Source: Phycisphaerae bacterium (GTDB lineage Bacteria > Planctomycetota > Phycisphaerae > Sedimentisphaerales > Anaerobacaceae). Taken from it: a DNA stretch of 64,000 bases. Below are positions 2,186 to 19,379 of this stretch, piece by piece. Each line of letters begins with the position of its first letter. Positions within the stretch are counted from its first letter, which is position 1. The notes beneath the pieces are model-generated. The model saw only the letters and a program-made list of their open reading frames with translations, searched no databases and was not told where the DNA came from. The translations under genes and the position numbers were made by a program. Location: assembly GCA_030604525.1 (NCBI GenBank), contig JAUVVQ010000005.1:15162-79161 (forward strand), given 5' to 3'.

Positions 2186-3820
2186 TTACGTGGCAGTGGA
2201 ATCCTTGTAGGGCGATTCGTATGATTTTACCGTTCCATTTTTGTATATGATCGTAATGGCCTCGTTGTCATCGAAGATTATCTGCTTCCAGTCCTTGACA
2301 ACACCGTAAAGGCAGCTTCGTAGCTTTGACCGCAGATACTCAGCGGGACCGATAATTGTCGCCCAGAATTCCTCCATTTCCTGCTCGAAGTAATACAACT
2401 GCGTATCATAAGTATCACCATCCTCATTCCAGCCGCCAAGATGAAACCATATATCGGTTGAACTCAACTGATTTCTGGCTTCAAGCGTGACATACACATT
2501 CATACAGCACCAGCTTCTTTTCTCAGTAGGCTGTTCGAGTACCGCCATAAGTACATCAGACTTGAAAACCTTGCCATCACTTGTATGCACCGCTATTTGA
2601 AGTGAGTCAGTAGCAATAAGCGTTTCGCTCCAGATGCCTTGCTGGCCGAGTTCTTTGCCTACAGCTACCTCGACTTTATTTACAGTAGGCAAATTGGCCC
2701 AACTGTATCCATCATAAGCAGGCCGAATTCTTACAGGAACAAAAGGCTCTTTGAGTTTTCCGGTTGCAGCTAACAGATGTATATTAGCCTCGTCGGTCTC
2801 ACAGCCATCTTCGCAATCCTTGCCCAGCCGGTAACAACTGCTCAGAGGCAAATCATCCGGCTTCGTCACCTCTATTGGCTCTACAACGTCATCGTAGAGC
2901 AACCCTATATCAAATACAGGCTCGGCCTCCGGCAGATCAATGCCAAGTTCCCTGGCACGTTCGTATTCCTTGAAAGGCAATTTATGTGCGCCTTGTTTCT
3001 GTATAAACCGGAATGCCTCGATCTCAATCGCAGCTTTAAGTTCCTCGAAAGCTTTGTTTTCGATAAGCTGTGTTCGTGCCGGAAGCATCAGACGGATACC
3101 TGTCGGATCCCCGGTCATATCCACCAGAAATGTAAGCTCCTGGTCACTTACCGGCGAATTTGTAAAGGAGATCACCTGGCCATGGAAGTTGACCAGAACA
3201 TCGTTGGAATAGTAGCCGTGCCTGAAATGTGTATGCCATTTATTCAGGGTTTTCTTATGGCGTACTTCAACCTTGCAGCCCAGTGCAGGATAATTGGCAG
3301 CATCCTCAGAGCAAAACGATTCCTTGCTACATTGCTGCCCATCAACTGTAGCTGTCAGACCGCTGAAAACAGCATGCTTTTCAACAGTGCCGAATTCCCA
3401 CGGTTCATCCTTGAACACAAGAATTGTACCTTTTATCGATTCGACGTTCTCCACAACCGCGACCGGCTCACCTGTCCAAGCCTTTTCGGTTATGCACACT
3501 TTCCTGTCTCCGCTGCAGATAGTAACTTCCCGCGGTGCCAGGCAAAAGACACCAACTCCTGCAGGATCTTCTGACTTCTCCGTTGCATCGTCCCAGTCCG
3601 AATCGCCGAGATGCAGCAATTTTGAAAAGTCCTCAATCCCACTGCCGTTGTCGCAAACAGTAATGAAACCGTCCTTGTTGATAATGTTTACATGCGTTGC
3701 ACCCGCTCGTCTTGAATTTTGCAGGATTTCAATAATCCTACCGTCCATTGTACCAGTGAACAACCTACTGGCCTTTGTCAGCAGTCTTTCACTGACTTTC
3801 GCACAAATTGTTTCTTGCAT
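2186..3820 (-). CDS. GHKL (Bergerat-fold) ATP-binding protein, 544 aa
   Basis: N-terminal motifs IIEILQNSRRAGATHV (N-box-like), VCDNGSGI (G1) and DPAGVGVF. It is the first gene of a minus-strand operon that also includes the DUF2958 gene. Confidence 0.6.
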   Translation of the reverse strand: MQETICAKVSERLLTKASRLFTGTMDGRIIEILQNSRRAGATHVNIINKDGFITVCDNGSGIEDFSKLLHLGDSDWDDATEKSEDPAGVGVFCLAPREVTICSGDRKVCITEKAWTGEPVAVVENVESIKGTILVFKDEPWEFGTVEKHAVFSGLTATVDGQQCSKESFCSEDAANYPALGCKVEVRHKKTLNKWHTHFRHGYYSNDVLVNFHGQVISFTNSPVSDQELTFLVDMTGDPTGIRLMLPARTQLIENKAFEELKAAIEIEAFRFIQKQGAHKLPFKEYERARELGIDLPEAEPVFDIGLLYDDVVEPIEVTKPDDLPLSSCYRLGKDCEDGCETDEANIHLLAATGKLKEPFVPVRIRPAYDGYSWANLPTVNKVEVAVGKELGQQGIWSETLIATDSLQIAVHTSDGKVFKSDVLMAVLEQPTEKRSWCCMNVYVTLEARNQLSSTDIWFHLGGWNEDGDTYDTQLYYFEQEMEEFWATIIGPAEYLRSKLRSCLYGVVKDWKQIIFDDNEAITIIYKNGTVKSYESPYKDSTAT

Positions 3821-4340
3821 AAAAACACCTCACTTTCTTGATTAAGATTGATAAAAAAAAGCACGCCTCTCGACCACAAGAGATGTGCCTACAGTTACAT
3901 TGGTATTCCGAGGGTATTTCACATTCGGTTAGAGGTATTCCGCGGCAAAATCTGCCGGAAAACCATAATTTGAAAAACAGTTCCAACTAGAATTAGATTT
4001 TACTGATACTTTTCTTACAGCAGGTCATTTCCTAACCTTGTTGCTGTGTGTTTGAATCGCTGTTTTCGGAGTGTCAATTTTCAGCATATGTTTTTGGTAA
4101 ACATATGGACGTCGTCAATGGTTCAAAAGCACTTAACGTGCTGATGCGATTTTTGCCAAAAGGCGTATTGTTGTTTTAAGTTATAGAATTGCTAAAAGAA
4201 ATGCTTTTAAAACAAATCAACTGATTTGCTGGTTGAGTGAATCAGTTGTTTCTTTATAAAGCAAAATTACGGCTGATTAATGTGGAATTGGTTAAATTGT
4301 AATGTGTAACCTCGGCACAAAAAGATGTGCCGAAAAAAAA

Positions 4341-4371
4341 GCCGCCCGGCAGAATAATTGATCCGGGCGGC
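4341..4371. terminator. Bidirectional rho-independent terminator hairpin
   Basis: GCCGCCCGG...CCGGGCGGC stem, flanked by an A8 run upstream and TTTAATTTTTT downstream. Confidence 0.5.
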
Positions 4372-4636
4372 TTTAATTTTTTATGCGTATAAAACAGTTG
4401 AATTCTTTTAAACAGCGGATGCTTCATTTGTTGGTATGAATCAGAATTTGATTGTTCAGGAAGAAAGCCTGGCAAGTGTGATTGATGCGGTAAAAAAACT
4501 GATAGCGCAGTTAGATGAGAAAATTAATTGTGTTGTTAAAAAAACTGCCGGGCCTCAAGTACATTCGTCCAGTTCTCAAGGGGCCCCGAACCGTCAGACC
4601 CGGCAACACATGCTATAGCCATATTCAATATTCAAT

Positions 4637-5557
4637 TTACGACTTACGTTTTCTAAGAAACAATCCGCCGAGCCCGACAAGTGCTAATGTTGCTGGCTCA
4701 GGAACTACATTTACAGGGATTTGTAAAGAAGTGGTTTCTGTGCCATCAGTAAGATAAAGTGTTGTCAAGTAGTTGCCAGAATCAGAGAAAACATGTTCGA
4801 GTGACAGTGTGCTTGTTTGAATTCCGCTTGTCCAAGTCGAAAGAGAAGGATATTTATCGTGAGGCACAGGTTCCTCATCAAAGGTAGCAGATCCGCTCTG
4901 GTCTGTCTGGCCATCACCGTCCCAGTCGATGTCATATGAGAAAAAAGGGTTGCCATAGTAGTCTCTGTCAACATACCTGGACCACCATGATGAGCTTTTA
5001 TCTTCAAATTCTAGGCCAAGACTGACAGTTAGTCCTGTGGTTGCTGAACTTTGCAAATACGTTCTTGGAGCATAATTTCGCCAGAGAGATACTTGCGAAA
5101 CAGCCGAAAGGGTCGCCACAATGCCTGAGCCGGTGTCAACCATCTCACTATGTCTCACTAAGTCAGCCAGATAGGCATTTCCCCCTGGTTCAGCCGGGCA
5201 ATCCCATACTTGGGGCGATTGAAAATTCATCGTTGCTGTTATGCTTTCTAATGAAGAAAGTTCGCTGCTTTGCCAGTCTATGATCATTGAACCATCTTCG
5301 AGGTATTCAATCCCGTCGGAAGCACTACACCCAACAACTGTTCCGGTCAACCCCAAAGAATCGGAAGCAATGAAACTTGAATATCGTGTACTCGGACGAA
5401 CTAAAGTGTAGCCGATAGTTGAATTAAAACTACAGTTATATTCGGTAATATCATAGGTTGCTCTGGCTGGCGAAATACCAATTCCGCTTACATCAGAAAC
5501 CATACAGAGGGTTGTTAAGAGTATAAAATTAAATGCTAATAATTCTTTTTTCATCAT
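4637..5557 (-). CDS. PEP-CTERM sorting-domain secreted protein
   Basis: N-terminal signal peptide. C-terminal VPEPATLALVGLGGLFLRKRKS (PEP motif, TM segment, basic tail). Confidence 0.8.
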   Translation of the reverse strand: MMKKELLAFNFILLTTLCMVSDVSGIGISPARATYDITEYNCSFNSTIGYTLVRPSTRYSSFIASDSLGLTGTVVGCSASDGIEYLEDGSMIIDWQSSELSSLESITATMNFQSPQVWDCPAEPGGNAYLADLVRHSEMVDTGSGIVATLSAVSQVSLWRNYAPRTYLQSSATTGLTVSLGLEFEDKSSSWWSRYVDRDYYGNPFFSYDIDWDGDGQTDQSGSATFDEEPVPHDKYPSLSTWTSGIQTSTLSLEHVFSDSGNYLTTLYLTDGTETTSLQIPVNVVPEPATLALVGLGGLFLRKRKS

Positions 5558-5571
5558 CTCACTCTATTAAA

Positions 5572-6294
5572 TTAAATTTGTCGTTTTCTAAAAATTAAAC
5601 CGCCTAAACCCAGCAAGAACAATGTTGCCGGTTCCGGGATTGTTGCTAATTCAAAATTACCTACCCGAAAGGTTGTGTCTTGGCAGGAAGGGATATCTAT
5701 TTCTATAAAGAATTTGTCAACTCCACTAGAGGGGACATCCAACATACCAGCCCAAATGATTTCTCTATCGATATAGGCAGCTATATATTCTCCTGAACTG
5801 TCTAAAAGCATAGCGACTTCGTGAGCGGTATCGCCCTTGGATACAGTATGTTGTACGCCATCAAGCATATCGTAAGTGCCTTCAGAATTTCTATATCCTA
5901 TAGAAATATAGTTGTTCCTAATATTTCCCGGTTCAGGAAAAAATCCTATGTAAGCCTCTAAGTTGCTAGAAAGCTGCATGCCGATTACATTTTTGCCCCA
6001 ACTCGTTAGGCTATAATCGTCAGTTTCCAAGGAAATATCTGCCCTTATTCCTCTTATATCTTCCTCTGGAACTGATGCATATTGGTAAAGTGATGCTCCC
6101 CATTGATACGTTGCCATAGAACGCAAATTCCATGCCCCGTCTCTGCTTGTTACCTCTACATTATATGTTGGAACACGGAAATCCCACTTGTTAAAGTTGC
6201 CACAATCATCATACATTGTCCAGATTGTTGCATTTGTTATCGGAGTCAATACTACCAGCAATAACAAAACGCATAGCGTAATCATTTTTCTCAT
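5572..6294 (-). CDS. PEP-CTERM sorting-domain secreted protein
   Basis: N-terminal signal peptide. C-terminal IPEPATLFLLGLGGLIFRKRQI. Confidence 0.8.
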   Translation of the reverse strand: MRKMITLCVLLLLVVLTPITNATIWTMYDDCGNFNKWDFRVPTYNVEVTSRDGAWNLRSMATYQWGASLYQYASVPEEDIRGIRADISLETDDYSLTSWGKNVIGMQLSSNLEAYIGFFPEPGNIRNNYISIGYRNSEGTYDMLDGVQHTVSKGDTAHEVAMLLDSSGEYIAAYIDREIIWAGMLDVPSSGVDKFFIEIDIPSCQDTTFRVGNFELATIPEPATLFLLGLGGLIFRKRQI

Positions 6295-6331
6295 TTATAC
6301 GTTCCCTTCTGATTTTAAGTTGACTATTTTG

Positions 6332-6961
6332 TTATAAATACAACCGGTCTAAGGCCTTTTTAATTTCGGGCAGCATTACATCCGCATAAACCTGGGTTGT
6401 TGTAATTTTTGCGTGTCCCAGTTGTTTCTGTACAAGGCGAAGATTCCAGTTGCTCGCTTTTAACAAAAAGCACGCGTATGTGTGCCTCAGGCAGTGAATC
6501 GAATAATGCAGAGGCAGGTCTGCTCTTTGTGCACATCGCTTAAATGCTTTCTGTATAGCTCTGGTCGTCATGTGTCCTCCGGTATTGCTGGATAACAATA
6601 ATGGCTGAGCGGCTTCTGTCGATTCGCCGATACTTTGTTTCCATGCCAGATATTCCTTACAATGCTGTTTGAATGGGCCGTTAAAAAAGACCCTTCTTTT
6701 TTTATTGCCTTTGCCGTTTTTTACCAGCAGCGACGGGAGCGTGTCATCTGTGCTGAGATCGTCGCAATTCAGTGCCACCATTTCCATTACCCGAAGGCCG
6801 GTTGCCAGGCCCAGATGGATAATAAAGTAATCCCTTACAGCGGTTTTCTTTTCCTTTGGATAGGCAGATTCCGCTCTGTTTTTGGCAACAGCCAGCAGTT
6901 TCTCCGCATCCTTCCTTGGCAGAAACTTCTTGGGATCAAGCTCCCAGGAATTTGATTTCAT
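6332..6961 (-). CDS. Tyrosine recombinase/integrase, short form (catalytic domain only)
   Basis: Catalytic residues in order: GLRVME (Arg), KGNKKR (Lys), HCLRHT (His-x-x-Arg), GHAKI (His), QVYADV (Tyr). Confidence 0.85.
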   Translation of the reverse strand: MKSNSWELDPKKFLPRKDAEKLLAVAKNRAESAYPKEKKTAVRDYFIIHLGLATGLRVMEMVALNCDDLSTDDTLPSLLVKNGKGNKKRRVFFNGPFKQHCKEYLAWKQSIGESTEAAQPLLLSSNTGGHMTTRAIQKAFKRCAQRADLPLHYSIHCLRHTYACFLLKASNWNLRLVQKQLGHAKITTTQVYADVMLPEIKKALDRLYL

Positions 6962-7277
6962 TCTTTTTCAGGCATCATGTCCTCCTTTCATATTTGGTGT
7001 GAAATATGAACTTATTTGACAAGGAAATATGGGCTTAAATACTTTTTGGATAAGGAGATACAACGACAAAGAGCGGGCTTTGTTTGGCGAAAAACTTCTT
7101 CGGGAAAAAGGCATGATTTGACAAATTTGAAACGCAAAATCGCTGAAAAAATGTTTTTATCGACGATTTTTTAGGAAAAAATTTTGAAATGACAATAAAA
7201 AAAGGTTCAGAAAACACACCTTATCTGAACCTTTGACTTTAATTGTAGCATATTTGCTTTTGGATTTCAAGCATTTC

Positions 7278-7306
7278 TTGACAATAACTGCTATCTAATT
7301 ATAATT
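7278..7306 (+). promoter_or_regulatory. Sigma70-like promoter for the HTH/methyltransferase operon
   Basis: TTGACA (7278-7283), 17-nt spacer, ATAATT (7301-7306), about 55 nt upstream of the ATG at 7361. Confidence 0.4.
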
Positions 7307-7360
7307 ACTGGAACTTCCCGTTTTAGGGTAAATATGTTTTATGGCTGGAGATAACGCTGT

Positions 7361-7558
7361 ATGTCAAAAAAACAGGACATTTTAACTATTGACGAGCTTT
7401 CCAAGTATCTGAAAATTCCTAAGTCTACTGTATACAAACTTTGTCAGGAAGGGAAGGTGCCAGGGCAAAAAGTTGGAAGACATTGGCGGTTCCACAAGGA
7501 AGTCATTGATAGTTGGATTAAAGAAGGTAGTTCTGCTTCTGGTAGCAATAAACGATAG
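7361..7558 (+). CDS. Excisionase/MerR-type helix-turn-helix protein (65 aa)
   Basis: LTIDELSKYLKIPKSTVYKLCQEGKVPGQKVGRHWRF matches the HTH_17/Xis-like pattern. The gene is divergent from the integrase. Confidence 0.8.
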   Translation: MSKKQDILTIDELSKYLKIPKSTVYKLCQEGKVPGQKVGRHWRFHKEVIDSWIKEGSSASGSNKR

Positions 7559-7606
7559 CTCTAATTTTGAGTGAAATGATATGATTATATTTGTAGTGAG
7601 ATTGAT

Positions 7607-8806
7607 ATGCCGAAGAGCTTAAAATACATCGATCTGTTTGCGGGGTGCGGCGGGCTATCGTTGGGACTATTCAATTCAAGTTGGCGAGGTATCTTTGCCA
7701 TAGAAAAAGATGCTATGGCTTTTGAAACCTTAAACCACAATCTAGTTGAACAAAAGAACCATTTTGATTGGCCAGATTGGTTACCAAAGACATGTCATGA
7801 TATAGATGAATTGTTGGAAGACTATCGTGAAAATCTTGAAGCCCTAAGCGGAGAGATAGATTTAGTTGTAGGTGGCCCACCTTGCCAGGGCTTTTCTATG
7901 GCTGGAAAGAGAAAAGAAAGTGATGCACGTAACAAACTAATTCACTCATATATTCAATTTGTTGATTATGTCAGACCTCGTGTAATATTATTTGAAAATG
8001 TAAAAGGCTTTACTCTAGGTTTTACCAAGAATGGCAAGCAGGGACAGCCATATTCAGATGTTGTCCTAAGTAGCTTAAAGGAGTTAGGGTATAGTGATGT
8101 TAGGGGTGAGTTAATAAATTTCGCTAAATTTGGAGTGCCCCAAAGAAGGGAGCGTTTTATTATAATAGGTACTCTTGATGGCAATGCAGACCACTTTTTT
8201 AGTAACTTATTGGCAAACCGGCAAAAGTTTTTGTCGGCAAAAAAATTAAAATCAAATATAGGTGTGAGATTAGCGATTTCGGATTTGAAAGAATCAAGTG
8301 GCTTAGTTGATTGTCCCGACACCCCAGGATTCAAATCAGGGCGATATATTTCTCCTAGAAATAATTATCAAAAATTACTTCGTAAATATGTCAATAAGAC
8401 GGCCATTCCCGACAGCCACCGTTTTGTAAATCATCGTCCAAATACTATCGACATTTATAAAAACCTTTTGAGCCGGGCAGAACGAAATATATCTGTAAAT
8501 GATGCTCTGAGGGAGGAACTTGGCATTAGTAAACGAAATGTAACCGTATTAGACAGCACAAAACCATCTCCAACATTGATGAGCATACCCGATGATTATG
8601 TCCATTACTGTGAACCAAGGGTGTTGACGGTTAGGGAATATGCCCGGATACAGTCTTTTCCTGATTGGTATAGATTTAAAGGCAATTATACAACCGGTGG
8701 AAAACGTAGAGCAAATGAGGTACCCCGTTATACCCAGGTTGGTAATGCAATTCCCCCGTTGTTTGCTGAACATGCCGGTAATATTCTAAAGGAGTTGTTA
8801 GATTAG
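7607..8806 (+). CDS. DNA (cytosine-5)-methyltransferase
   Basis: Motif I DLFAGCGGLSLG, motif IV GGPPCQGFS, motif VI LFENVKGF, motif VIII QRRERFII, motif X GNAIPP. Confidence 0.95.
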   Translation: MPKSLKYIDLFAGCGGLSLGLFNSSWRGIFAIEKDAMAFETLNHNLVEQKNHFDWPDWLPKTCHDIDELLEDYRENLEALSGEIDLVVGGPPCQGFSMAGKRKESDARNKLIHSYIQFVDYVRPRVILFENVKGFTLGFTKNGKQGQPYSDVVLSSLKELGYSDVRGELINFAKFGVPQRRERFIIIGTLDGNADHFFSNLLANRQKFLSAKKLKSNIGVRLAISDLKESSGLVDCPDTPGFKSGRYISPRNNYQKLLRKYVNKTAIPDSHRFVNHRPNTIDIYKNLLSRAERNISVNDALREELGISKRNVTVLDSTKPSPTLMSIPDDYVHYCEPRVLTVREYARIQSFPDWYRFKGNYTTGGKRRANEVPRYTQVGNAIPPLFAEHAGNILKELLD

Positions 8807-11098
8807 ATGGCAAAGCTTGATCCAAATAAATTTCGAGTTAGCTCAGCACTAAAAAATATCATTGGCAAAGAGTTAATTACCGATGATTTTATTGCAGTAT
8901 TTGAATTAGTCAAAAATTCTTTTGATGCACATGCAGCACAAGTTGATATCTTTTTTGAAGGTATCCGTGGCGATAATACAAGGCTTATCATATGGGATGA
9001 TGGCAAAGGAATGGATAGGGAGGATATAATAAAAAAATGGCTTTTTGTTGCCTATTCTGCAAAAAAAGAAGGGACGGAAGACTACAGGGATAAGATTAAA
9101 TCCAAACTTATTCATGCAGGGTCTAAGGGAATTGGGCGTTTTTCCTGTGATAGGCTTGGTAGTAACCTTACTTTTTATACGAAGAGAAAGGGAGACAATG
9201 CAAAAATCAATAAGCTTGTAGTCGATTGGGCTGACTTTGAACAAGACTCGCAAGAAGAATTTATTAATATCAAGATTAAACATAGTTATGTCCAAGAAGC
9301 ACCTTACGAAAACTTTAAACATGGTACGATATTGGAGATAACCGGATTACTGGAAAGATGGAATAGAGATAAACTTCTTACGCTAAGACATTCTCTTGAA
9401 AAATTAATTAATCCCAACCAGGAAAATGATCCGCATGGCTTCTCGATATATCTTAATGTTGAAGAGGAAGAAGAAAAAGACAGGGAAGAAAAAGCAAAGG
9501 GTGAGAAAAGAGATATTGTTAATGGTAGGATTGAAAATAAAATATTTGAAAATTTAGAAATTAAAACAACAAAAATCAACACAGTTATTTCTAAAGACGG
9601 CAAAACCATTACTACCCTCCTAGAAGATAGAGGGACCTTGATATATAAAGTTGTTGAAGAAAATTCTTACAAAGAACTACTTAAAAATATTAATATTTAT
9701 CTTTTTGTGCTTAATCGTTCCGCCAAACTTAGTTTTTCAAAAAGGATGGGGATTCGTGCAGTTCAGTATGGTTCTATTTTCCTTTACAAGAATGGCTTTA
9801 GAATCTATCCATTCGGAGAACCAGGGCAAGATACACTTAAAATAGATCATCGTAAACAACAGGGGACAGCACGCTTTTTCGGCACACGTGATTTAATAGG
9901 ACGAATAGAAATTAATGGGAATAACCCTTTGTTTCAGGAGACAAGTAGCAGGGACGGCGGTCTTATCCGCAACTCAGCCTATGAAGTCTTGGAGAAATTT
10001 TTTACTGAGTATGTGCTAAAGAGACTTGAAAAATTCGCTATTGGTGTAATCAAATGGGGTAATGATGGCGATTTGCTAGACCACGAGCAACTTAGCCCCG
10101 CAGAGATGAAGAAAAAAGTTTCCGATATCGTGTACCATCTAACGACATCTGAAAATATTATTGATTTCAACTACAATCCAAAACTTATTGATGTACTGCA
10201 GGATAGGACCGAGAGAAGCCTTAAGAAGATACTCGGCAACCTACAGCACATCGCGGAACAATCAGATAACCAGCTTGTTGCCAAAGAGATTAGGCGAGCT
10301 CAAAGACAATATAACTCTCTCTTAAAAGCTAAAGAGGAAGCTGAAAAAGGAGAACAAGCTGCAAAGGAAGAGACCAGAAAAGGAAAGGATGTTGTAAAAC
10401 AAAAGGAAACTCAAAACTTATTTTTGAAGGCAGCTATACCCCATGACGTGAAGTTCCTGGATAATCTCTGTCACTCTATTGGAATGTACGCAGATGGTAT
10501 GCATGATGACATCAGGGATATATTGTCAGAGGCAAAGAAAAAACAGATGAGTAGGAATGTCATCGTAGGTGCAATTAAAAATATAAGTTACCATTCGAAT
10601 ACAATCGCTTCGTTGGCCAAATTTGTATCAAGGGCTAAATTCAGGTTTGATTGTGCCAAGATGAGAAAGGACTTAATCCTCTTCATGAGAGAGCATTTGT
10701 TGAACGTCTCTTCGGAGATTTACAAAAAGGAGATACGGATCAAGTTTACCAGCGAGATTAAAGGAAAATTCGTTTGTGAATTCAGGCCAATAGAGATAAC
10801 GATACTTCTCGATAACTTAATAAGTAACTCAATAAAAAAGAAGGCACGGAATTTTATCATTGATGTCATGTCTCTGACGCCCGGAATGTTGAAGGTTAGT
10901 TTTTCGGATGATGGTCAGGGTGTGCCCAGTTCGGTTCGTGATTGCCTTTTCGAGGAAGGTATAACCACAACAAGTGGTTCCGGTTTAGGGTTATTTCATG
11001 TGAAAGAGATAATCACCAGCATGAAGGGCAGCATACAGTTCAATCCTGATTACAAAGGTGGAGCTCAATTCGTAGCTACATTTAAGAGGAAACCATGA
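8807..11098 (+). CDS. Fusion protein: N-terminal MORC/HATPase_c_3-like GHKL ATPase plus C-terminal histidine kinase (DHp-like H-box and CA domain)
   Basis: N-terminal motifs ELVKNSFDAHA, IWDDGKGMD, GSKGIGRFS. A Lys/Glu coiled-coil follows, then IPHDVKFLDNL (His546). C-terminal motifs LLDNLISNSIKK (N box), FSDDGQGV (G1), SGSGLGLFHVKEI (G2). The start codon directly abuts the methyltransferase stop. Confidence 0.7.
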   Translation: MAKLDPNKFRVSSALKNIIGKELITDDFIAVFELVKNSFDAHAAQVDIFFEGIRGDNTRLIIWDDGKGMDREDIIKKWLFVAYSAKKEGTEDYRDKIKSKLIHAGSKGIGRFSCDRLGSNLTFYTKRKGDNAKINKLVVDWADFEQDSQEEFINIKIKHSYVQEAPYENFKHGTILEITGLLERWNRDKLLTLRHSLEKLINPNQENDPHGFSIYLNVEEEEEKDREEKAKGEKRDIVNGRIENKIFENLEIKTTKINTVISKDGKTITTLLEDRGTLIYKVVEENSYKELLKNINIYLFVLNRSAKLSFSKRMGIRAVQYGSIFLYKNGFRIYPFGEPGQDTLKIDHRKQQGTARFFGTRDLIGRIEINGNNPLFQETSSRDGGLIRNSAYEVLEKFFTEYVLKRLEKFAIGVIKWGNDGDLLDHEQLSPAEMKKKVSDIVYHLTTSENIIDFNYNPKLIDVLQDRTERSLKKILGNLQHIAEQSDNQLVAKEIRRAQRQYNSLLKAKEEAEKGEQAAKEETRKGKDVVKQKETQNLFLKAAIPHDVKFLDNLCHSIGMYADGMHDDIRDILSEAKKKQMSRNVIVGAIKNISYHSNTIASLAKFVSRAKFRFDCAKMRKDLILFMREHLLNVSSEIYKKEIRIKFTSEIKGKFVCEFRPIEITILLDNLISNSIKKKARNFIIDVMSLTPGMLKVSFSDDGQGVPSSVRDCLFEEGITTTSGSGLGLFHVKEIITSMKGSIQFNPDYKGGAQFVATFKRKP

Positions 11099-11991
11099 GT
11101 CTTAGTTATAGAATTCTCTGGATAGACGATAACCCTACAACCATCAGGAGTAAGGTAAATCAAATCAGAACTTTCTTAGAAAAACAAGGTTTTAGGCCAG
11201 TGATAGATGTAATCGAAAGCGGGAATAATATAGAAAGCCACCTGTTAGACCCGCTTTTGGATTTAATTGTCACTGATTATAGAATACATGATGATTTGAA
11301 TGGAAAAGAGGTGGCTGAAGGAATCCGGGAATCAGATGTGATGGTTGATATTATCCTGTATTCTCAAGTCGCGGGTACGGATTTATACAAAGAGGTAGGT
11401 ACTTTAGATGGTGTTTACATTTCAAACAGGCAAGGATTGGAAGACAAGATTAAGGAAGTTATTGAAATCACCATAAGAAGAACACAAAGAGTGAGCAGTA
11501 TGCGGGGGATTGTAATTTCGGAAGCAATTGATATTGAGAATCAAATTGAAGATATCATCTTGTCTTATTACGACACCAGGGAAAAAGAACTGGCTAAGGT
11601 ACTGTTAAGCGGCGATGGTTGCAATGATCTTGGCCCTAAAATACGGTTTCTCAATTCTACGCTGAAGGATATTATTGCATCTATAAAAAGTAGTGATCAA
11701 GCAACAGAGAAAAAGATGCAACAAAAGATAGAACTGCTACTTAGCACAGCCAAGAAACTTGAAAACGAAGTCTGCAAACCCAGAGATATGCTTGCTCACG
11801 TTGAGCATACGATCGACAACAACACAATATTTTTAAAAAGTCTAAAATCTGGGTATGAAGATATCAAGATAGATACGGGTTGTTGTCAAAAAATGAGGCA
11901 ATCGTTTATGAAACACGCATCAAACCTTGAACAAATCAAAAGTTTTCTCTCCAAGTGGCATGAATATAAGAAAAAAGTACAAAAGAATTAA
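11095..11991 (+). CDS. Receiver (REC) domain protein with a helical C-terminal HEPN-like domain (Rx4H)
   Basis: ILWIDDNP (D11/D12), LIVTD (D61) and ILYS (S90) fit a receiver domain. The C-terminal domain carries KPRDMLAH (R230-x4-H235). An ATGA overlap couples it to the upstream kinase gene. Confidence 0.6.
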   Translation: MSLSYRILWIDDNPTTIRSKVNQIRTFLEKQGFRPVIDVIESGNNIESHLLDPLLDLIVTDYRIHDDLNGKEVAEGIRESDVMVDIILYSQVAGTDLYKEVGTLDGVYISNRQGLEDKIKEVIEITIRRTQRVSSMRGIVISEAIDIENQIEDIILSYYDTREKELAKVLLSGDGCNDLGPKIRFLNSTLKDIIASIKSSDQATEKKMQQKIELLLSTAKKLENEVCKPRDMLAHVEHTIDNNTIFLKSLKSGYEDIKIDTGCCQKMRQSFMKHASNLEQIKSFLSKWHEYKKKVQKN

Positions 11992-12664
11992 TAAACTAAA
12001 AATAAAATGGTTTCAAACTCAGTTAGCCCATTGGTTCGAACTCAATAATCGCAAATTTCCCTGGCGCGAAGGAAATTGCTCAAAATACCAGTTAATAATA
12101 GCTGAGGTTTTGCTTCAAAGAACTAAAGCCGAAACAATCGCAACCTTCTTCCCCTTTTTCATTAAACAATACCCTTCTTGGAAATCATTGTCTTCTGTGA
12201 ATAAAACAAAGTTAAAAAAAGACTTGAAACCAATCGGACTTTGGAAAAGAAGGTCTGATACTTTAAAGAGATTATCAACCGCGATGGCAAAACGTGGAGG
12301 GAGATTTCCAAGAACCAGGGGAGAAATTGAAGAATTACCGGGAGTTGGACAATACATTGCAAATGCAATTCTGATGTTCTGTCAAGATGAACCACAACCG
12401 TTACTCGATATGAATATGGCGAGAGTATTGGAAAGATTTTTCGGACAGCGTCAATTGGCTGATATACGTTATGATCCATATTTGCAAGAATTATCCCGAA
12501 GAGTTCTTCCCAAGAATCATGCGAAGGAATTTAACTGGGCAATCCTTGATTTTGCCTCCTTGATTTGTAAGGCCAGAAAACCTCTATGTTTGAAATGTCC
12601 CCTTAAAATCAGGTGCCAGTATTTCGACCATGATAAAGGAGTTGTGCTTGTCAAGCGGTCGTAG
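11960..12664 (+). CDS. HhH-GPD DNA glycosylase of the EndoIII/MutY family (Mig-like, [4Fe-4S] loop)
   Basis: FPWRE...VLLQRTKAE, HhH motif LPGVGQYIANAI, Asp context LLDMNMARVLERFF, and the cluster loop C-x6-C-x2-C-x5-C (CKARKPLCLKCPLKIRC). The start is uncertain: the ORF track gives 11927, and the second Met is at 11960. Confidence 0.85.
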   Translation: MNIRKKYKRINKLKIKWFQTQLAHWFELNNRKFPWREGNCSKYQLIIAEVLLQRTKAETIATFFPFFIKQYPSWKSLSSVNKTKLKKDLKPIGLWKRRSDTLKRLSTAMAKRGGRFPRTRGEIEELPGVGQYIANAILMFCQDEPQPLLDMNMARVLERFFGQRQLADIRYDPYLQELSRRVLPKNHAKEFNWAILDFASLICKARKPLCLKCPLKIRCQYFDHDKGVVLVKRS

Positions 12665-13251: not shown

Positions 13252-15294
13252 ATGAACAACTTTGGTGATAAGGTCAGTTTTATATGGAGCGTAGCTGACT
13301 TGCTTCGCGGGCCGTATAAGCCAAATCAGTACAGGGACGTAATGTTGCCTCTCACCGTGCTGCGGCGTCTGGACTGTGTACTGGAACCGACTAAAGGCAA
13401 GGTGCTGGCCAAACTAAACGCCCTAAAAGGCGGCTCTGTCAAGAATATCGAGCCGATTCTTAACCGTGCTGCGGGGCAGCAATTTCACAATACCAGTTTG
13501 CTTGATTTTAACAAACTTAAAGGCGATCCCAATAATATCGCAGCTAACCTGGTTAGTTATACTAAAGGCTTTTCTTCAAAGGCACGCGAGGTAATAGAGT
13601 ATTTCGATTTTGAGCCCCATATCGAGAAGCTGGACAATGCCAATCGCCTGTACTTGGTGGTTAAAAAATTTGCAGAAATCGACCTGCATCCTGATGTTGT
13701 TTCCAATACAGAGATGGGTTACATCTTTGAAGAGCTTATTCGCAAGTTTAACGAAGCAGCCAACGAGGAAGCCGGTGACCATTTCACCCCTCGTGAGGTC
13801 ATCCGTCTTATGGTCAACCTGCTTTTTTCTCAGGATAATGCAATCCTGACCACAAAGGGTATCGTAAGAACTCTCTACGACCCTGCGTGTGGTACAGGTG
13901 GTATGTTGTCGGTTTCAGATGAATATCTTCGTGAGCTAAATCCAGATGCTCGACTCGAAGTTTACGGCCAGGAATATAATCGATTTGCATATGCAACCTG
14001 TGGCTCGGATATGATAATTAAAGGCCAAAGCCTTGAAAATATTAAATTCGGCGACACATTCGGCGATGGTAAAACCTCTGACGGTCTGCCACGTCATAAG
14101 TTTGATTATATGCTGGCAAATCCGCCATTTGGTGTTGAATGGAAGCCAGAGGCAGATGAGGTCAGAAAAGAATACGACCAGCAGGGTTTTACCGGCAGAT
14201 TTGGGGCTGGAGTTCCCCGGATTAACGATGGGTCGTTCCTGTTCCTACAGCATATGATATCCAAAATAAAGCCTGTAAAAGATGGCGGCAGCCGTATTGG
14301 AATAGTATTCAATGGCTCACCTTTGTTTACCGGCGATGCGGGTTCTGGCGAATCAAATATTCGCCAATGGATTATAGAACATGATTGGCTTGAAGCCATA
14401 ATCGCTATGCCCGACCAGTTGTTTTACAATACCGGCATATTTACATATATCTGGATAGTTACCAACCGCAAGGAGAAGAAACGTAGAGGTAAAATTCAGC
14501 TTATCAATGCTGTTGAGTTTTATCAGAAAATGCGAAAGAGCCTTGGCAACAAGCGTAATGAGATTGGCGACGGACAAAATGGACGACCGAACCACATTGC
14601 AGAAATTACTCGTATTTATGGCGAATTTAAGGAATCAAAATACAGCAAGATATTCAACAACGATGATTTTGGCTTTCGCAAAATAACTGTTGAAAGGCCG
14701 CTCAAGTTAAGCTTTCAGGCAACTGCTGAGCGCATTAAATCTCTAATGGAGACAAAAGCTTTTGTTAATCTGGCTAAGTCCAAAAGGAAAAAAGGTTCTA
14801 AGATAGCCTTGGCTGAAATAGAAGCAGGACAAAAGTTGCAGGCCGACATTCTTGAAGCTTTGAAAACGCTTGATGCCGACAAGATTTACAAAAACCGTGA
14901 TGCTTTTGATAAAGACCTGGCTGTTGCGATGAAAGCTGCAGATATCAAGCTGCCTGCCCCAGTCAAAAAGGCGATTCTAAACACTCTTTGCGAACGGGAC
15001 GAGACAGCTGATGTTTGCACAGACAAAAAAGGTAACCCTGAGCCGGATACCGAGCTTAGAGACTATGAAAATGTGCCGTTAAAGGAGGATATTTACGAAT
15101 ACTTCAAACGTGAAGTTCTGCAGCACGTACCCGATGCATGGATTGACGAGAGTAAGACCAAGGTTGGCTACGAGATACCTCTAAACCGGCACTTCTATGA
15201 ATATACCCCGCCAAGACCACTTGCAGATATTGAGTCTGATATTAAGGCCCTCGAAGGAGACATCGTAAAAATGCTGGGGGAGGTGACAGGATGA
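13252..15294 (+). CDS. hsdM: Type I restriction-modification methyltransferase subunit
   Basis: N-terminal HsdM-type region, motif I DPACGTGGML, motif IV LANPPFGVEW. Operon context with hsdS and hsdR. Confidence 0.95.
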   Translation: MNNFGDKVSFIWSVADLLRGPYKPNQYRDVMLPLTVLRRLDCVLEPTKGKVLAKLNALKGGSVKNIEPILNRAAGQQFHNTSLLDFNKLKGDPNNIAANLVSYTKGFSSKAREVIEYFDFEPHIEKLDNANRLYLVVKKFAEIDLHPDVVSNTEMGYIFEELIRKFNEAANEEAGDHFTPREVIRLMVNLLFSQDNAILTTKGIVRTLYDPACGTGGMLSVSDEYLRELNPDARLEVYGQEYNRFAYATCGSDMIIKGQSLENIKFGDTFGDGKTSDGLPRHKFDYMLANPPFGVEWKPEADEVRKEYDQQGFTGRFGAGVPRINDGSFLFLQHMISKIKPVKDGGSRIGIVFNGSPLFTGDAGSGESNIRQWIIEHDWLEAIIAMPDQLFYNTGIFTYIWIVTNRKEKKRRGKIQLINAVEFYQKMRKSLGNKRNEIGDGQNGRPNHIAEITRIYGEFKESKYSKIFNNDDFGFRKITVERPLKLSFQATAERIKSLMETKAFVNLAKSKRKKGSKIALAEIEAGQKLQADILEALKTLDADKIYKNRDAFDKDLAVAMKAADIKLPAPVKKAILNTLCERDETADVCTDKKGNPEPDTELRDYENVPLKEDIYEYFKREVLQHVPDAWIDESKTKVGYEIPLNRHFYEYTPPRPLADIESDIKALEGDIVKMLGEVTG

Positions 15295-16658
15295 TAAGCC
15301 CGCTGGATGCAATTACAAAATTTTATTTAGAATCGCATCGATTCAATGGATATCCATTTGTAAATTTAAAGCAAGAACTCGGGATGAATTTTCACGACGC
15401 TTTTAATTTTGTAAGAGAGAATGTTAATAATGGAACTCTTACAGCTGTTTTTGGTGATATGCACCCAAATCCGCATATCAAAGCTTTTTCTGATGAGCCA
15501 CAGAAAAATATTATAACTAAACTGAATCAGCATAAAGATAAAATGAATGAGAGTTTTAATGAATATTCAGCTAATGATCCTGATAACTCTGCTTACAGCA
15601 AAATAGGAAATTGTGCTATCAAATTTGCGACGGGCATAACAGTCTGCCTTTATCCCACGAGGTTACATCTTGAGAGTATTGTCAATCCAGATGGCTACAA
15701 AGATCGTCCTTATACCTATGAAATGGCACTGGGGGCAGGCCAGTTAGAGTTTCGCTACTTTGAATTAACTGTACTTGAATTTTATAGAAACGATCCCAGA
15801 TATTACTATTGGTGTGATGACATTAATGGACGTATTTCTATACACGATGAACACTATCACGGCGAATCAATGGCGGAGAAAGACAAAGTTTTATTAGAGA
15901 CATTTGGTTTTGCTTATGATAATGATACACATCGTGCAGTCACAACTTTAGTCTACTATATTTCCAAGTTATCACCAGAGCATCAGCAGGTATGGAAAAA
16001 TCAGGAATTAGACTCCTCTAAATACAGACCGCATCCGGATTATTATCGTAACAATATCCTTGGAGACTGGGGCGAAAAGATTCCTATTTGCACAGCATTT
16101 TTGATGGAATTGAAAATCATAAATCAAATGTGTGTTGCGATGGGTAAACCAGCTTTGTTTCGTAAAGACTTTGATGGTGACGATAAACCACGTAATTTTT
16201 CTTTTCTCGTTAGACCTACTCATAAAGAGTATTATGATTTTGTTGGTCTTCTGGACAAAATGATGTCTGATAATGTTAATAAAAAGTTTTTTGAAAATGA
16301 CATATCCTGTGAAGACGAGGAAACTCGCCCTGATGGCAAAATTGTAGTTAAACAAAAAGGGACAATCCAATTATTGAAGGAATGGATAAATAAATACTAT
16401 CATCCTCAAGGTCAGAAGCCGATGGATGATATTTTCAAGGCGTTTCGTAAAGTAAGAAAGGAAAGGCAGCGTCCTGCCCATGCTATTGATGACGATAGAT
16501 TCGATCAAAAATATTTCGCAGATCAGCGTCAGATTTTAAAAGAAGCTTATGGTGCAGTCAGGACCATACGTTTGGTTTTCGCCAATCATCCTGCTGTAAA
16601 GGCTGCAAAAATTGATATCCCTCAGAATCTTTTTGAAGGCAAAATATGGACTTGTTGA
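15291..16658 (+). CDS. Hypothetical protein (455 aa) embedded between hsdM and hsdS
   Basis: ATGA overlap with the hsdM stop. No domain recognised. A basic segment near the C-terminus, FRKVRKERQRPAHAIDDDRF, contains an R-x4-H spacing. Confidence 0.6.
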   Translation: MISPLDAITKFYLESHRFNGYPFVNLKQELGMNFHDAFNFVRENVNNGTLTAVFGDMHPNPHIKAFSDEPQKNIITKLNQHKDKMNESFNEYSANDPDNSAYSKIGNCAIKFATGITVCLYPTRLHLESIVNPDGYKDRPYTYEMALGAGQLEFRYFELTVLEFYRNDPRYYYWCDDINGRISIHDEHYHGESMAEKDKVLLETFGFAYDNDTHRAVTTLVYYISKLSPEHQQVWKNQELDSSKYRPHPDYYRNNILGDWGEKIPICTAFLMELKIINQMCVAMGKPALFRKDFDGDDKPRNFSFLVRPTHKEYYDFVGLLDKMMSDNVNKKFFENDISCEDEETRPDGKIVVKQKGTIQLLKEWINKYYHPQGQKPMDDIFKAFRKVRKERQRPAHAIDDDRFDQKYFADQRQILKEAYGAVRTIRLVFANHPAVKAAKIDIPQNLFEGKIWTC

Positions 16659-16675
16659 TCTAACAGGAGAATAAT

Positions 16676-17008
16676 ATGGCAATATTAGACACGGCAAAAA
16701 CAATAGCTGAACTTGCTAAAAAGGGTATGACTGTAGAGCTTCAGGAAAAGATTGTGGAGCTTAGAGAAGAAGTGATAGCTCTTAAAGAAGAAAACGTTCA
16801 ATTGAGAGAGGAAAACCTACAATTAAAGCAACAACTTAATGGCTATGCTAAAGGCAACCTTTGCCCGAAATGCAAGAAAGATACATGGCAGCTTGAAGAA
16901 AGTAAACCGCATCCTATCATGCAAGATATGGGTATTATTTTGAGGACATATAAATGTTCGCAATGCGGTTTCTCTGAAGAATATGATTATACGCCGAAAG
17001 GTCATTAA
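16676..17008 (+). CDS. Coiled-coil plus zinc-ribbon small protein (110 aa)
   Basis: Leucine-zipper-like VELREEVIALKEENVQLREENLQLKQQL, followed by CPKC...CSQC (a four-Cys ribbon). Confidence 0.55.
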   Translation: MAILDTAKTIAELAKKGMTVELQEKIVELREEVIALKEENVQLREENLQLKQQLNGYAKGNLCPKCKKDTWQLEESKPHPIMQDMGIILRTYKCSQCGFSEEYDYTPKGH

Positions 17009-17025
17009 CAAAACCCCTAAAAGCC

Positions 17026-18960
17026 ATGGAAACAAAGCATAAAAAATATGACAAATACAAACCTTCCGGCATTGAGTGGCTGGGTGAAGTGCCTGAGCAT
17101 TGGGATGTTAAACGGCTCAAATATATGACTTCAATTAATGATGAGGCTTTGGCAGAATCAACACCATCTGATTACGAGATTCTATATGTTGACATTGGAA
17201 ATGTTGATTCCGCTAAAGGAATTACAAAAAAAGAACTAATGGTCTTTGAAGAAGCTCCGTCAAGAGCAAGACGTATTGTTCAAAACGGTGATACGATAGT
17301 CTCTACTGTCCGCACCTATTTAAGAGCCATTGCCCCAATTGAAATCGCAGAAGACAACCTAATAGTATCAACGGGCTTTGCCGTTGTCAGACCAAGAGAG
17401 ATCAACAGTAATTATCTTTCCTATGCTCTACGTTCACCCTATTTCGTAGAAACAGTTGTCTCTCGTTCTGTAGGAGTTAGCTACCCCGCGATTAATGCAA
17501 GTGATCTTGCTACTATTGAAATCACATTCCCCAACATCTCTGAACAAGAAGCCATCGCTGATTTTTTAGATCGCAGGATGTGTGAGATTGATGAGTTGAT
17601 TGCCAAAAAGGAGCGGGTGATTGAATTACTCAGGGAAAAACGCACAGCCCTTATCAGCCATGCCGTTACCAAGGGCCTTAATCCAGATGCAAAAATGAGA
17701 GACTCTGGTATCGACTGGCTGGGAGATGTGCCGGAACATTGGGAACTAAAAAAACTAAAGTATCTTGTTAAAGAAAAGCTTAAGTATGGAGCAAACGAAT
17801 CCGCTGAATTGGATGATCCGTTGTTGCCAAGATACATCCGAATTACTGACTTTGGAGATGATGGCAAACTTAGAGACGATACCTTTAAATCTTTACCGCA
17901 AGACAAGGCAAAGGAATATTTGCTTGGGGAAGGAGATATTTTATTTGCCAGAAGCGGAGCTACTGTTGGCAAAACGTTTCAATTTAAGAGTTATGATGGG
18001 ATAGCTTGTTTTGCAGGCTATCTGATTAAAGCCAGTCCTGATAAGGATAAAATACTTTCTGATTTTGCGTATTACTACACAAAATCAAATGCCTATGACA
18101 ATTGGAAAAACAGTATTTTTATTCAGGCTACCATCCAAAATATTGGAGCAGACAAGTACCAAACATTACTTGTTACACAACCCTCATTAAATGAACAAAC
18201 AGAAATCACTGACTATCTTAACCGTGAGACAGCCAAGATTGACGCTTTGATGGCTAAAGTTACAGATGCAATAGAGAAGCTGAAAGAATACCGCACAGCA
18301 TTGATCTCCGTAGCGGTGACGGGAAAGATATGTATTACAGAACAGAAGGTATCTGAACAGAAAAAACCGGCACGTCGGGCAACACCGGAGTTCAAGCGTA
18401 CAGTTCTGGCAGCAGAGATTGTTTGCCAGATGCATACTGACAATACTTTCGGGCGGGTTAAGTTTCAGAAATGCTTGTATCTAACTGAACACATTTTACA
18501 GCTTTCTGAATTCAAAGGACATTATCATAGAGATGCAGCCGGGCCACTTGACAACAGACTGATGCACTCGGTAGAGGGGCAAATGAAGAGACTTAAATGG
18601 TTTGAAGCTCTCAATGTTGCAGGGCGAGTAATATATGTTCCCATGGAGAAGGTAGATGGATACAAACAGTATTTTCAAAGATATTGGGGCAACTTGAGGA
18701 CAAGGGTTCAGGAATTAATTGAAATTCTGCGACCAATGAATACTGAGCAGGCGGAAATTGTTGCTACGCTGTTTGCCGCATGGAATGACCTCATTATAAT
18801 CGGAAAGCCATTAGATGATTCAATAATCCTCGATGAAGTCCTTAATAAATGGCATCCCCAAAAAGCTGATATTACACGTGAAAGATGGTTAATTGCTCTT
18901 GATTGGATGAGAAACAAAGGCCTTGTCCCGCAAGGATATGGAGAGACCACGATAATGTAA
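17026..18960 (+). CDS. hsdS: Type I R-M specificity subunit with an extra C-terminal domain of about 200 aa
   Basis: Duplicated HsdS architecture: WLGEVPEHWDVKRLKY and WLGDVPEHWELKKLKY, plus two conserved coiled regions (ALISHAVTKG and ALISVAVTGK). The protein then continues for about 200 aa beyond the normal end. Confidence 0.9.
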   Translation: METKHKKYDKYKPSGIEWLGEVPEHWDVKRLKYMTSINDEALAESTPSDYEILYVDIGNVDSAKGITKKELMVFEEAPSRARRIVQNGDTIVSTVRTYLRAIAPIEIAEDNLIVSTGFAVVRPREINSNYLSYALRSPYFVETVVSRSVGVSYPAINASDLATIEITFPNISEQEAIADFLDRRMCEIDELIAKKERVIELLREKRTALISHAVTKGLNPDAKMRDSGIDWLGDVPEHWELKKLKYLVKEKLKYGANESAELDDPLLPRYIRITDFGDDGKLRDDTFKSLPQDKAKEYLLGEGDILFARSGATVGKTFQFKSYDGIACFAGYLIKASPDKDKILSDFAYYYTKSNAYDNWKNSIFIQATIQNIGADKYQTLLVTQPSLNEQTEITDYLNRETAKIDALMAKVTDAIEKLKEYRTALISVAVTGKICITEQKVSEQKKPARRATPEFKRTVLAAEIVCQMHTDNTFGRVKFQKCLYLTEHILQLSEFKGHYHRDAAGPLDNRLMHSVEGQMKRLKWFEALNVAGRVIYVPMEKVDGYKQYFQRYWGNLRTRVQELIEILRPMNTEQAEIVATLFAAWNDLIIIGKPLDDSIILDEVLNKWHPQKADITRERWLIALDWMRNKGLVPQGYGETTIM

Positions 18961-18988
18961 AAGATAAAAATTTTTAAGGAAAGTCAAT

Positions 18989-19333
18989 ATGGCAAAAGAA
19001 ATAACGGATATTGATATATTGCAGCAGTATTTGGAAGGTGTTATGGAGCGAAGTGAACATCATGCTGACGAAGTGAATGAGATTATTCTGGCATTGATTG
19101 GGGCAGTTATATGGAAGAAAAACAGCAGACCCATCAAAGTTAAAGAGTATGCTGGCGAACTCGCGAATGTTCTATGGTGGCACAGCAAAGGCGGTAATAA
19201 GTATGCCTTTAGATACAATCATGAACAAAAAAAGATAGAATTGAGGAAAGATACTTTCAAGGGTAATTTGGTTATGGCTTTTGACAACAATACCGAGATA
19301 GATGAAATTATTAATCTGTTCGGAACGCTGTAA
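18989..19333 (+). CDS. Hypothetical protein (114 aa)
   Basis: ORF in operon register between hsdS and hsdR. No domain recognised. Confidence 0.5.
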   Translation: MAKEITDIDILQQYLEGVMERSEHHADEVNEIILALIGAVIWKKNSRPIKVKEYAGELANVLWWHSKGGNKYAFRYNHEQKKIELRKDTFKGNLVMAFDNNTEIDEIINLFGTL

Positions 19334-19379
19334 ATGACTGGTATCGTAACCGGGAAAATTGATGTAAGAGAGAATTAGA

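Follow-up and report, generated by a model that had tools for sequence, protein, structure and literature searches.

A methyltransferase-led gene cassette pairing a MORC-like GHKL ATPase/histidine kinase with a receiver protein that carries a candidate effector domain

We analyzed a 64,000-nucleotide stretch of DNA from a Phycisphaerae bacterium (contig JAUVVQ010000005.1), referred to here as the window, with attention to two adjacent genes encoding a cytoplasmic GHKL-ATPase/histidine-kinase fusion and a receiver protein with a distinct C-terminal domain, which we call REC-X. The functional unit is a cassette of three to four genes in which a C-5 cytosine DNA methyltransferase is the obligatory, translationally coupled first gene. 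Within this methylase-led cassette, it is likely that a catalytic effector, formed by the C-terminal domain of REC-X, is under the control of a working His-Asp relay. We advance more tentatively, as a proposal a little short of evenly balanced, the full chain in which the cassette is a mobile element resembling a restriction-modification (R-M) system and the kinase/REC-X pair replaces the restriction endonuclease by means of a phosphorylation-switched HEPN-type RNase. A preliminary description of this DNA, made from the letters alone, had suggested a phosphorelay-gated effector; that idea is partly supported by the present work, being reasonable and better founded than before. The gene class itself is known from a computer analysis published in 2021 and is not new to the literature.

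The kinase gene (8807-11098, + strand) encodes 763 amino acids (aa), and its domains were assigned from the open reading frame (ORF), Pfam, an alignment of 23 sequences with 47-93% identity, an AlphaFold2 (AF2) model and Foldseek. It is followed by the REC-X gene (11095-11991, +), an ORF of 298 aa. The preliminary description had reported both ORFs, their overlap and a series of motifs, all of which are present where it had placed them: the kinase stop and the REC-X start share the ATGA at 11095-11098, the kinase contains ELVKNSFDAHA, IWDDGKGMD, GSKGIGRFS, LLDNLISNSIKK, FSDDGQGV and SGSGLGLFHVKEI, and REC-X contains LIVTD (D61) and KPRDMLAH (R230/H235). Its proposal that the kinase has two Bergerat-fold modules also stands, as Pfam places HATPase_c_3 (E=5e-23) over residues 29-174 and HATPase_c (E=8e-21) over residues 663-761, with invariant motifs in both. 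As it had also remarked, none of the usual sensor domains is visible in the kinase, where the Pfam scan finds no PAS, GAF, transmembrane-associated or other sensor domain.

The N-terminal domain of the kinase (residues 1-185; 8807-9361) is a MutL/MORC-type GHKL ATPase, similar to the paraMORCs. Bergerat motifs I-IV are complete (E33xxxN37, D64xGxG68, G105xxGxG110 and G173-T174), with a catalytic-type Glu33 preceding Asn37, and E33, N37, D64, G66, G68, G105, K107, G108, G110, G173 and T174 are invariant across the alignment. NCBIfam returns a weak match to MutL for this region and a stronger one to the BbrUII/HgiDII family (E=1e-18, residues 31-231), which covers the GHKL domain only and scores 67 bits against a family cut-off of 550. 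The beta-rich domain that follows (residues ~186-465; 9362-10201), delimited by conservation and by AF2 secondary structure, has no Pfam match. Its conservation runs at 0.6-0.83 per 20-residue block, with an invariant R349-K350-x-Q352 loop, and GRP94, an Hsp90 protein, aligns with the kinase model over 519 columns in Foldseek, with moderate model confidence in this middle domain. We infer that it acts as an ATP lid and transducer. A Lys/Glu-rich long helix (residues ~469-530; 10211-10396), predicted by AF2 as helices 469-485 and 489-530, forms a coiled-coil linker whose length differs among homologues.

The C-terminal part of the kinase has the organization of a histidine kinase core. In the AF2 model (mean pLDDT 69.7), a helical hairpin at residues 545-609 is followed by an alpha/beta domain; we assign the hairpin (10439-10633) to the dimerization and histidine phosphotransfer (DHp) domain and residues 619-763 (10661-11095) to the catalytic and ATP-binding (CA) domain. 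About 230 residues spanning both match the kinases WalK, HK853, CpxA and ZraS in Foldseek (E~3e-12), and the N, G1, F and G2 boxes of the CA domain are represented by the invariant residues N670/N674/K677, D701-x-G-x-G705, F715 and G724-x-G-x-G728-L. The predicted phospho-acceptor is H556 (codon 10472-10474, checked in the DNA), which lies in LCHSIG (family consensus LHHHIGIAAG), is invariant in 23/23 kinases and, when the alignment profile is run against PDB sequences, coincides with the phospho-acceptor His260 of HK853 from Thermotoga. The preliminary description had placed the phospho-acceptor at H546 (IPHDV); this residue is R or Q in relatives, and we reject it because it is not conserved. 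The residues and fold of a HisKA-type DHp/CA core are present, and H556 is its probable site of autophosphorylation.

The receiver domain of REC-X (residues 1-125; 11095-11469) had likewise been predicted from the sequence, and comparison across homologues bears this out. For REC-X, conservation was assessed in 139 diverse sequences sharing no more than 50% identity and 21-40% identical to the window protein, together with a set of 38 closer homologues. Response_reg is detected in 123 of the 139 (best E=5e-12), while the window protein itself scores just below threshold (27.0 bits against a cut-off of 30.2, E=5e-6). The putative phospho-acceptor D61 (codon 11275-11277) and Y89 are invariant, S90 is conserved at 90% or more in both sets, and D12 reaches the same level in the 38 closer homologues. 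Also in line with the preliminary description, Pfam recognizes neither a DNA-binding domain nor another known regulatory output in the window protein or in the 139 homologues.

What follows the receiver is a mostly helical domain (residues ~130-298; 11482-11988) in which the preliminary description had seen an Rx4H signature and, from it, a likeness to HEPN RNases. A profile built on residues 120-298 collects 717 cluster representatives at E<=0.001, and the best 150 of these all consist of about 120 aa of receiver followed by about 175 aa of C-terminal domain. Among the 139 sequences, the only residues outside the receiver that are invariant are R137, G138, R230 and H235, so that both residues of the signature are included; N231, A234 and R268 are conserved at 90% or more. 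The motif (11782-11799 in the window) reads R-N-x-x-A-H in 133/139, and the window protein carries the rarer R-D: position 231 is N in 136/139 and D in 3/139, which fits the rule that a polar residue follows the arginine in HEPN proteins. No acidic residue is invariant in the domain, so a metal-independent RNase fits better than a metal-dependent DNase.

According to a survey of the HEPN superfamily, the Rx4-6H motif lies where helix 3 ends and the loop leading to helix 4 begins, with N, D or H after the arginine, and a beta-hairpin after the motif occurs in the HEPN protein Csx1 (PMC3710099). The AF2 model of our C-terminal domain (pLDDT 84.7) is all-helical save one beta-hairpin; the motif closes the penultimate helix (103-115 in fragment numbering) and is followed by the hairpin and then by the last long helix. 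The modeled position of the motif is consistent with that described for HEPN proteins. Pfam matches below threshold point in the same direction. HEPN_Swt1 (8 of the 139, best E=0.004), HEPN_Apea (6, 0.011) and Abi_2 (4, 0.0024) are the commonest matches at E<=1 after the receiver families, alongside one coiled-coil family, and RiboL-PSP is matched twice (0.0086). On this basis we consider membership of the HEPN superfamily probable.

The two genes do not stand alone. Directly upstream of the kinase lies the gene for the methyltransferase (7607-8806, +; 399 aa), which matches Pfam DNA_methylase (E=2e-53) and PADLOC MTase_II (E=2e-81) and whose TAG stop (8804-8806) directly abuts the kinase ATG at 8807. 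In a scan of one genome per species (GTDB representatives) we found at least 517 loci and analyzed the best 80, of which 79 have an intact kinase ORF. The methyltransferase is upstream of the kinase and on the same strand in 79/79, and immediately adjacent in about 73, with a gap of -43 to +61 bp. REC-X is directly downstream of the kinase in about 75 of the 79, usually with a 4-bp overlap. The preliminary description had set the pair between a methyltransferase and a repair glycosylase; with the methylase linked to the kinase in 79/79 loci, we reject a kinase/REC-X pair that is independent of the neighboring methylase or that merely sits between unrelated genes. Loci come from Planctomycetota, Bacteroidota, Bacillota, Pseudomonadota, Patescibacteria and further phyla. 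The nearest relatives, at 91-93% identity, lie on a contig of a Desulfobacteraceae metagenome-assembled genome, and metagenomic protein space holds more than 5,700 kinase clusters. Metagenome contigs repeat the order DNA_methylase, kinase and a protein of 275-320 aa; HhH-GPD or Vsr frequently comes next, and the flanks are unrelated.

Mean pairwise identity in 65 complete triplets is 0.49 for the methylase, 0.47 for the kinase and 0.28 for REC-X, and the pairwise distances of kinase and REC-X correlate (Spearman 0.66). The target-recognition domain of the methylase is nearly constant in length (139-147 aa) and the distribution of identities is unimodal, so the methylases are orthologous. They probably share the same or a similar specificity, in contrast to ordinary Type II systems, whose methylases are swappable. 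An endonuclease gene, the partner of the methylase in a Type II R-M system, is not recognizable in the window cassette from the ORF list, Pfam or PADLOC.

The optional fourth gene of the cassette supports, indirectly but well, an activity of the methylase in vivo. In the window this gene (11927-12664, +; likely start at ATG 11960, still overlapping the end of the REC-X gene) encodes a MutY/Mig-like DNA glycosylase of the HhH-GPD family (Pfam E=3e-11), which matches MutY at E=1e-45, below the cut-off, and the PADLOC model PDLC03398, "Type II nicking endonuclease", at E=4e-38. The fourth position holds HhH-GPD in loci L001, L007 and L093/94 and Vsr in a verrucomicrobial relative (L095, 13272-13694). 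The alternation of HhH-GPD and Vsr at the 3' end of the cassette has the form of a non-orthologous displacement, and the presence of unrelated T:G repair enzymes at the same position suggests a methylase that acts on the cell's DNA. A further reading of these genes takes the cassette for a module dedicated to repair or maintenance in response to 5-methylcytosine damage, in which the MutL-like ATPase assists the T:G glycosylase or Vsr, much as Vsr is stimulated by MutL in E. coli. The MutL-like N-terminus of the kinase and the frequent T:G repair gene are compatible with such a role, as is the functional link between MutL and Vsr (PMC2292703). It is nevertheless highly improbable: of the 79 loci, only about 10 contain a homologue of the window HhH-GPD gene (Vsr not counted), in contrast to the constant presence of the kinase core and REC-X, and a repair module would leave the kinase core and the receiver-effector without a role.

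Variant cassettes shed light on the place of the C-terminal domain. In seven loci from Flavobacteriia and Cytophagia, the receiver stands on its own as a protein of 124-141 aa. Four of these seven (L061, L075, L076 and L083; about 2500-8650) carry an MvaI/BcnI-family endonuclease between the methylase and the kinase, and one (L078, 8268-9541) carries an HNH endonuclease after the receiver. Queries with the MvaI/BcnI and HNH nucleases matched no locus that encodes full REC-X. As the receiver-only variants carry a DNase instead, the C-terminal domain appears to fill an effector slot. The MvaI/BcnI endonuclease of the Flavobacteriia/Cytophagia variants bears a 160-aa N-terminal extension, and their methylase, enlarged to 735-760 aa, begins with an Arm-DNA-binding domain.

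In plasmids, a tblastn search with the kinase reached nothing closer than distant relatives that share 25-31% identity across the N-terminal half, and a tblastn search with REC-X gave no match. Two of these relatives, from Enterobacter mori (L011, 4947-8169) and Stenotrophomonas (L012, 3655-8450), retain a kinase with HATPase_c_3 and HATPase_c, next to receiver proteins of 357 aa and 212 aa, respectively, whose C-termini are unrelated to the window domain. The E. mori locus has no methylase ORF directly upstream. An AbiJ-NTD4 protein encoded there, a candidate HEPN reference for hhalign, was dropped because its C-terminus lacks a clear Rx4-6H motif.

These parts can be arranged in a chain of steps. 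The methyltransferase would mark host DNA, in agreement with the co-inheritance of a gene for repair of 5-methylcytosine deamination. The MutL/MORC-like ATPase and the transducer would form the sensor, closing as an ATP-dependent dimeric clamp on unmarked DNA; this is the weakest step of the proposal. Since the kinase has no variable recognition domain, the methyltransferase may be needed as its specificity partner. Closure of the clamp would then be passed through the coiled coil to the DHp/CA core, leading to autophosphorylation of H556, and the phosphoryl group would be transferred from H556 to D61 of REC-X, as the conserved receiver pocket, the gene linkage and the co-evolution of the two proteins suggest. 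Dimerization of the receiver upon phosphorylation might join two C-terminal domains, whose R-N-x-x-A-H motifs would together form a metal-independent HEPN-type RNase site, and cleavage of RNA would arrest the infected cell or one whose methylation has been lost. With such a relay-gated effector, the kinase/REC-X pair would take the place of the restriction endonuclease.

A number of observations weigh against this chain, and several of them concern its last step. All HEPN matches in Pfam are below threshold (best E 0.0024-0.011), with their register on the motif unverified, as none of ten members picked by motif variant was one of those with a match. Against PDB, Foldseek returned nothing at E<=0.001 for the C-terminal model, the best matches (E=0.1) being designed or generic helical bundles, and no HEPN entry is among the top 50, in a method that is weak on helical bundles. 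Nothing significant was found against BFVD either, and searches of PDB sequences with the C-terminal profile and with REC-X gave only coiled-coil noise. A Pfam scan of the consensus sequences from the C-terminal hidden Markov model (HMM) was swamped by Lys/Glu-rich low-complexity matches. Because Foldseek (PDB and BFVD) and the profile search of PDB sequences are without a match, the HEPN assignment is held to be only probable: the motif, its modeled position and the sub-threshold profiles speak in favor of the likeness suggested in the preliminary description, and the structure searches do not. Nor did Foldseek superpose the domain on solved structures as a HEPN four-helix up-down bundle.

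The relay may therefore be real and the C-terminal domain an effector of another kind, a new enzymatic or binding domain acting on DNA, the methyltransferase or some other target. That a confidently modeled domain has neither a HEPN nor any other significant match in Foldseek, and no significant match in Pfam, NCBIfam or PDB sequences, is in keeping with this view, as is the occupation of the equivalent slot in variant operons by DNases (MvaI/BcnI, HNH) and not by RNases. We regard it as unlikely, given the invariant R-N-x-x-A-H motif, which has a polar residue after the arginine and ends the penultimate helix as in HEPN proteins, and given the recurrence of four HEPN-clan families among the weak matches; a metal-dependent DNase, in particular, is disfavored by the lack of an invariant acidic residue.

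Other difficulties for the RNase-based chain lie further upstream. The conservation profile of the kinase shows no hypervariable target-recognition domain, a possibility that we therefore reject, and no DNA-recognition domain is evident in the protein. In the receiver, conservation of the canonical lysine was not seen, and an arginine (R112, invariant in the 38 closer homologues) appears to stand at its inferred position. PADLOC has no model matching the kinase or REC-X, the Detocs content of its library being unchecked. Finally, in an acidobacterial locus (L096, 8013-8783) an HNH_2 endonuclease is encoded directly upstream of the methylase although full REC-X is present, so a role alongside a conventional nuclease is possible; some cassettes may combine a DNase with an RNase-like effector. 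A NERD-domain gene adjoins the HNH_2 gene in this locus.

Conventional nucleases beside some cassettes, whether the HNH_2 of L096 or the MvaI/BcnI and HNH enzymes of the receiver-only variants, could also mean that the pair is a regulatory two-component system and not a killing arm, one that tunes methyltransferase activity, the timing of methylation or a nuclease encoded elsewhere. Standalone receiver variants would suit such a function, and a signaling role linked to R-M was proposed in PMC8011034. We think it distinctly unlikely, as REC-X lacks a DNA-binding domain and any other known output of a regulatory kind, and most loci, the window included, have no nuclease gene to regulate. The catalytic-looking invariant set of R, N, H and R residues would also be unusual in a pure adaptor.

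The genomic setting leaves room for one more explanation. We compared nine distinct neighborhoods of the relatives by their Pfam labels, a comparison that is not a formal enrichment; phmmer searches with the window HsdM, HsdS, HsdR and integrase over the 80 loci were too insensitive for one. Seven of the nine contexts are mobile or defense-like, with integrases, transposases, type I or IIG R-M, PIN/PhdYeFM, HicB, PemK, Fic, SIR2, NERD, HNH_2 and deaminase genes, and together with the integrase and type I R-M genes of the window they agree with the setting proposed in the preliminary description. The other two are plain housekeeping neighborhoods with an inserted block of three to four genes, and they belong with the observations that count against a defense function. 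A compact mobile cassette found beside integrases and transposases, and also inserted among housekeeping genes, might be mainly a selfish addiction module that acts by post-segregational killing: on loss of the element methylation would be diluted, the kinase would fire and the effector would kill the segregant. This explanation uses the same parts as the defense reading and accounts for the strict retention of the methylase, and R-M systems as selfish elements are discussed in PMC8011034. Sequence data cannot separate addiction from defense, and classical R-M systems do both, but the frequent co-location with other defense genes suggests selection for immunity, and we judge a mainly selfish role to be very improbable.

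In the window, the cassette lies directly after the gene for a 209-aa tyrosine recombinase, or integrase (6332-6961, - strand; Phage_integrase E=1e-28), and before a type I R-M operon, in a stretch of low GC content (0.37-0.41 over 8-20 kb, against ~0.45 in the flanks). A tRNA-Thr(TGT) gene is found at 28393-28464 (-), about 16 kb downstream of the cassette. The integrase, the tRNA gene and the low GC content together suggest that the cassette sits in an integrated island. The type I R-M operon (13252-23714, +) has unusual insertions between hsdM and hsdR. Inserted there are an ORF of 455 aa (15291-16658) that matches nothing in Pfam, NCBIfam or PADLOC, a coiled-coil/Zn-ribbon-like ORF of 110 aa, a 644-aa HsdS in which the C-terminal 190 aa match the C-terminus of a PADLOC type I methyltransferase model, an integron-cassette protein (VCH_CASS14) and a DUF4268 protein. 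Elsewhere in the window, a 544-aa GHKL-type protein (2186-3820, -) has a weak, sub-threshold HATPase_c_3 match (residues 28-101, E=1.3e-4) and adjoins a DUF2958 protein (1184-2077, -). Its sequence bears no relation to the kinase family, as phmmer found no homologue of it in the 80 related loci. Just outside the island, two adjacent proteins (4637-5557 and 5572-6294, both -) end in PEP-CTERM sorting motifs.

The cassette is widespread and is absent from PADLOC, the defense catalogue tested here. Its description corrects the annotation of thousands of genes labeled "ATP-binding protein" or "response regulator". Even in eukaryotes, little is understood of MORC ATPases, and the proposed chain, if true, would show how one can act as a signaling sensor. 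It would also provide a clean link, testable by mutation, between DNA methylation status and cell suicide at the level of RNA. In its broadest form, the proposal would be that hundreds of species in more than ten phyla use an endonuclease-less form of R-M in which methylation is read by a MORC/MutL-like clamp and a phosphorelay switches on a HEPN RNase, which would be the first case of a phosphorelay converting epigenetic discrimination of self and non-self DNA into RNA-targeting abortive infection. In that form we consider it doubtful.

Kinases of this architecture were described by Bellieny-Rabelo et al. in 2021 (PMC8011034) as cytoplasmic proteins combining HATPase_c_3, HEF_HK and HATPase_c, 91.6% of which are linked to a response regulator-like gene (Response_reg_2). 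In the neighborhoods that they reported, C5 methylases lie upstream and Vsr downstream, with MvaI_BcnI or HNH_2 nearby; a regulatory role was suggested, together with an origin of the kinases from paraMORCs, and the C-terminus of the response regulator-like protein was left uninterpreted. The system in the window matches this class in architecture and neighborhood. The statement in the preliminary description that the pair belongs to no named defense system holds insofar as PADLOC has no model for it, and fails insofar as the architecture had been described. There are also differences from the 2021 class. HEF_HK (PF19191) matches neither the window kinase nor 23 homologues nor the two plasmid relatives, and the acidic residue that follows the H-box histidine in HEF_HK is replaced by H or S in the window family. 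Response_reg_2 (PF19192) gives weak matches in only 2 of the 139 REC-X homologues (E=0.035) and none in the window protein, whose receiver is closer to the classical Response_reg. As PF19191 and PF19192 do not detect the window proteins, the system may be either a divergent branch of the class or a member that falls outside narrowly built Pfam models.

Detocs (DtcA/DtcB/DtcC) provides an experimental precedent for a His-Asp relay that gates an immune effector. As in the logic proposed here, the receiver that its kinase phosphorylates is joined to a toxic effector and not to a DNA-binding domain, and the swappable effectors of Detocs have a parallel in the unrelated receiver C-termini of the plasmid clades. 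Its components are otherwise different. Detocs has a TPR sensor, a buffer receiver (DtcB), mostly a PNP ATP-nucleosidase effector and no methyltransferase, whereas the window cassette lacks a buffer receiver and combines a sensor of the GHKL ATPase type with an obligatory 5-methylcytosine (m5C) methylase and a helical effector that has an RNxxAH motif. With no TPR or PNP domain and no standalone buffer receiver gene, the window cassette is not a Detocs system. If the chain of steps set out above is correct, it would be a second independent family of immune two-component systems beside Detocs.

The coupling of an ATPase to a HEPN RNase also has counterparts in R-M loci. Aravind and colleagues noted fusions of paraMORC and HEPN (Ymh) domains in such loci and likened them to PrrC and RloC (PMC3710099), in which an ATPase-coupled HEPN RNase serves as a second-line suicidal arm; we propose a comparable coupling here. 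Those systems hold the ATPase and the HEPN domain in one polypeptide, in contrast to the window, where two proteins would be joined by a His-Asp relay and the HEPN domain is only probable. The BbrUII/HgiDII Type II enzymes and the R-M paraMORC families (PMC2292703) likewise have a MutL/MORC-like GHKL N-terminus encoded beside an m5C methyltransferase and a Vsr-type gene. BbrUII/HgiDII enzymes continue into a C-terminal nuclease and recognition part, and the window kinase has a coiled coil and a kinase core instead. Co-inheritance of an m5C methylase with a T:G repair enzyme is further known from Dcm-Vsr and M.MthTI-Mig, but in the window cassette, unlike in those pairs, a kinase and a receiver-effector are placed between the two genes.

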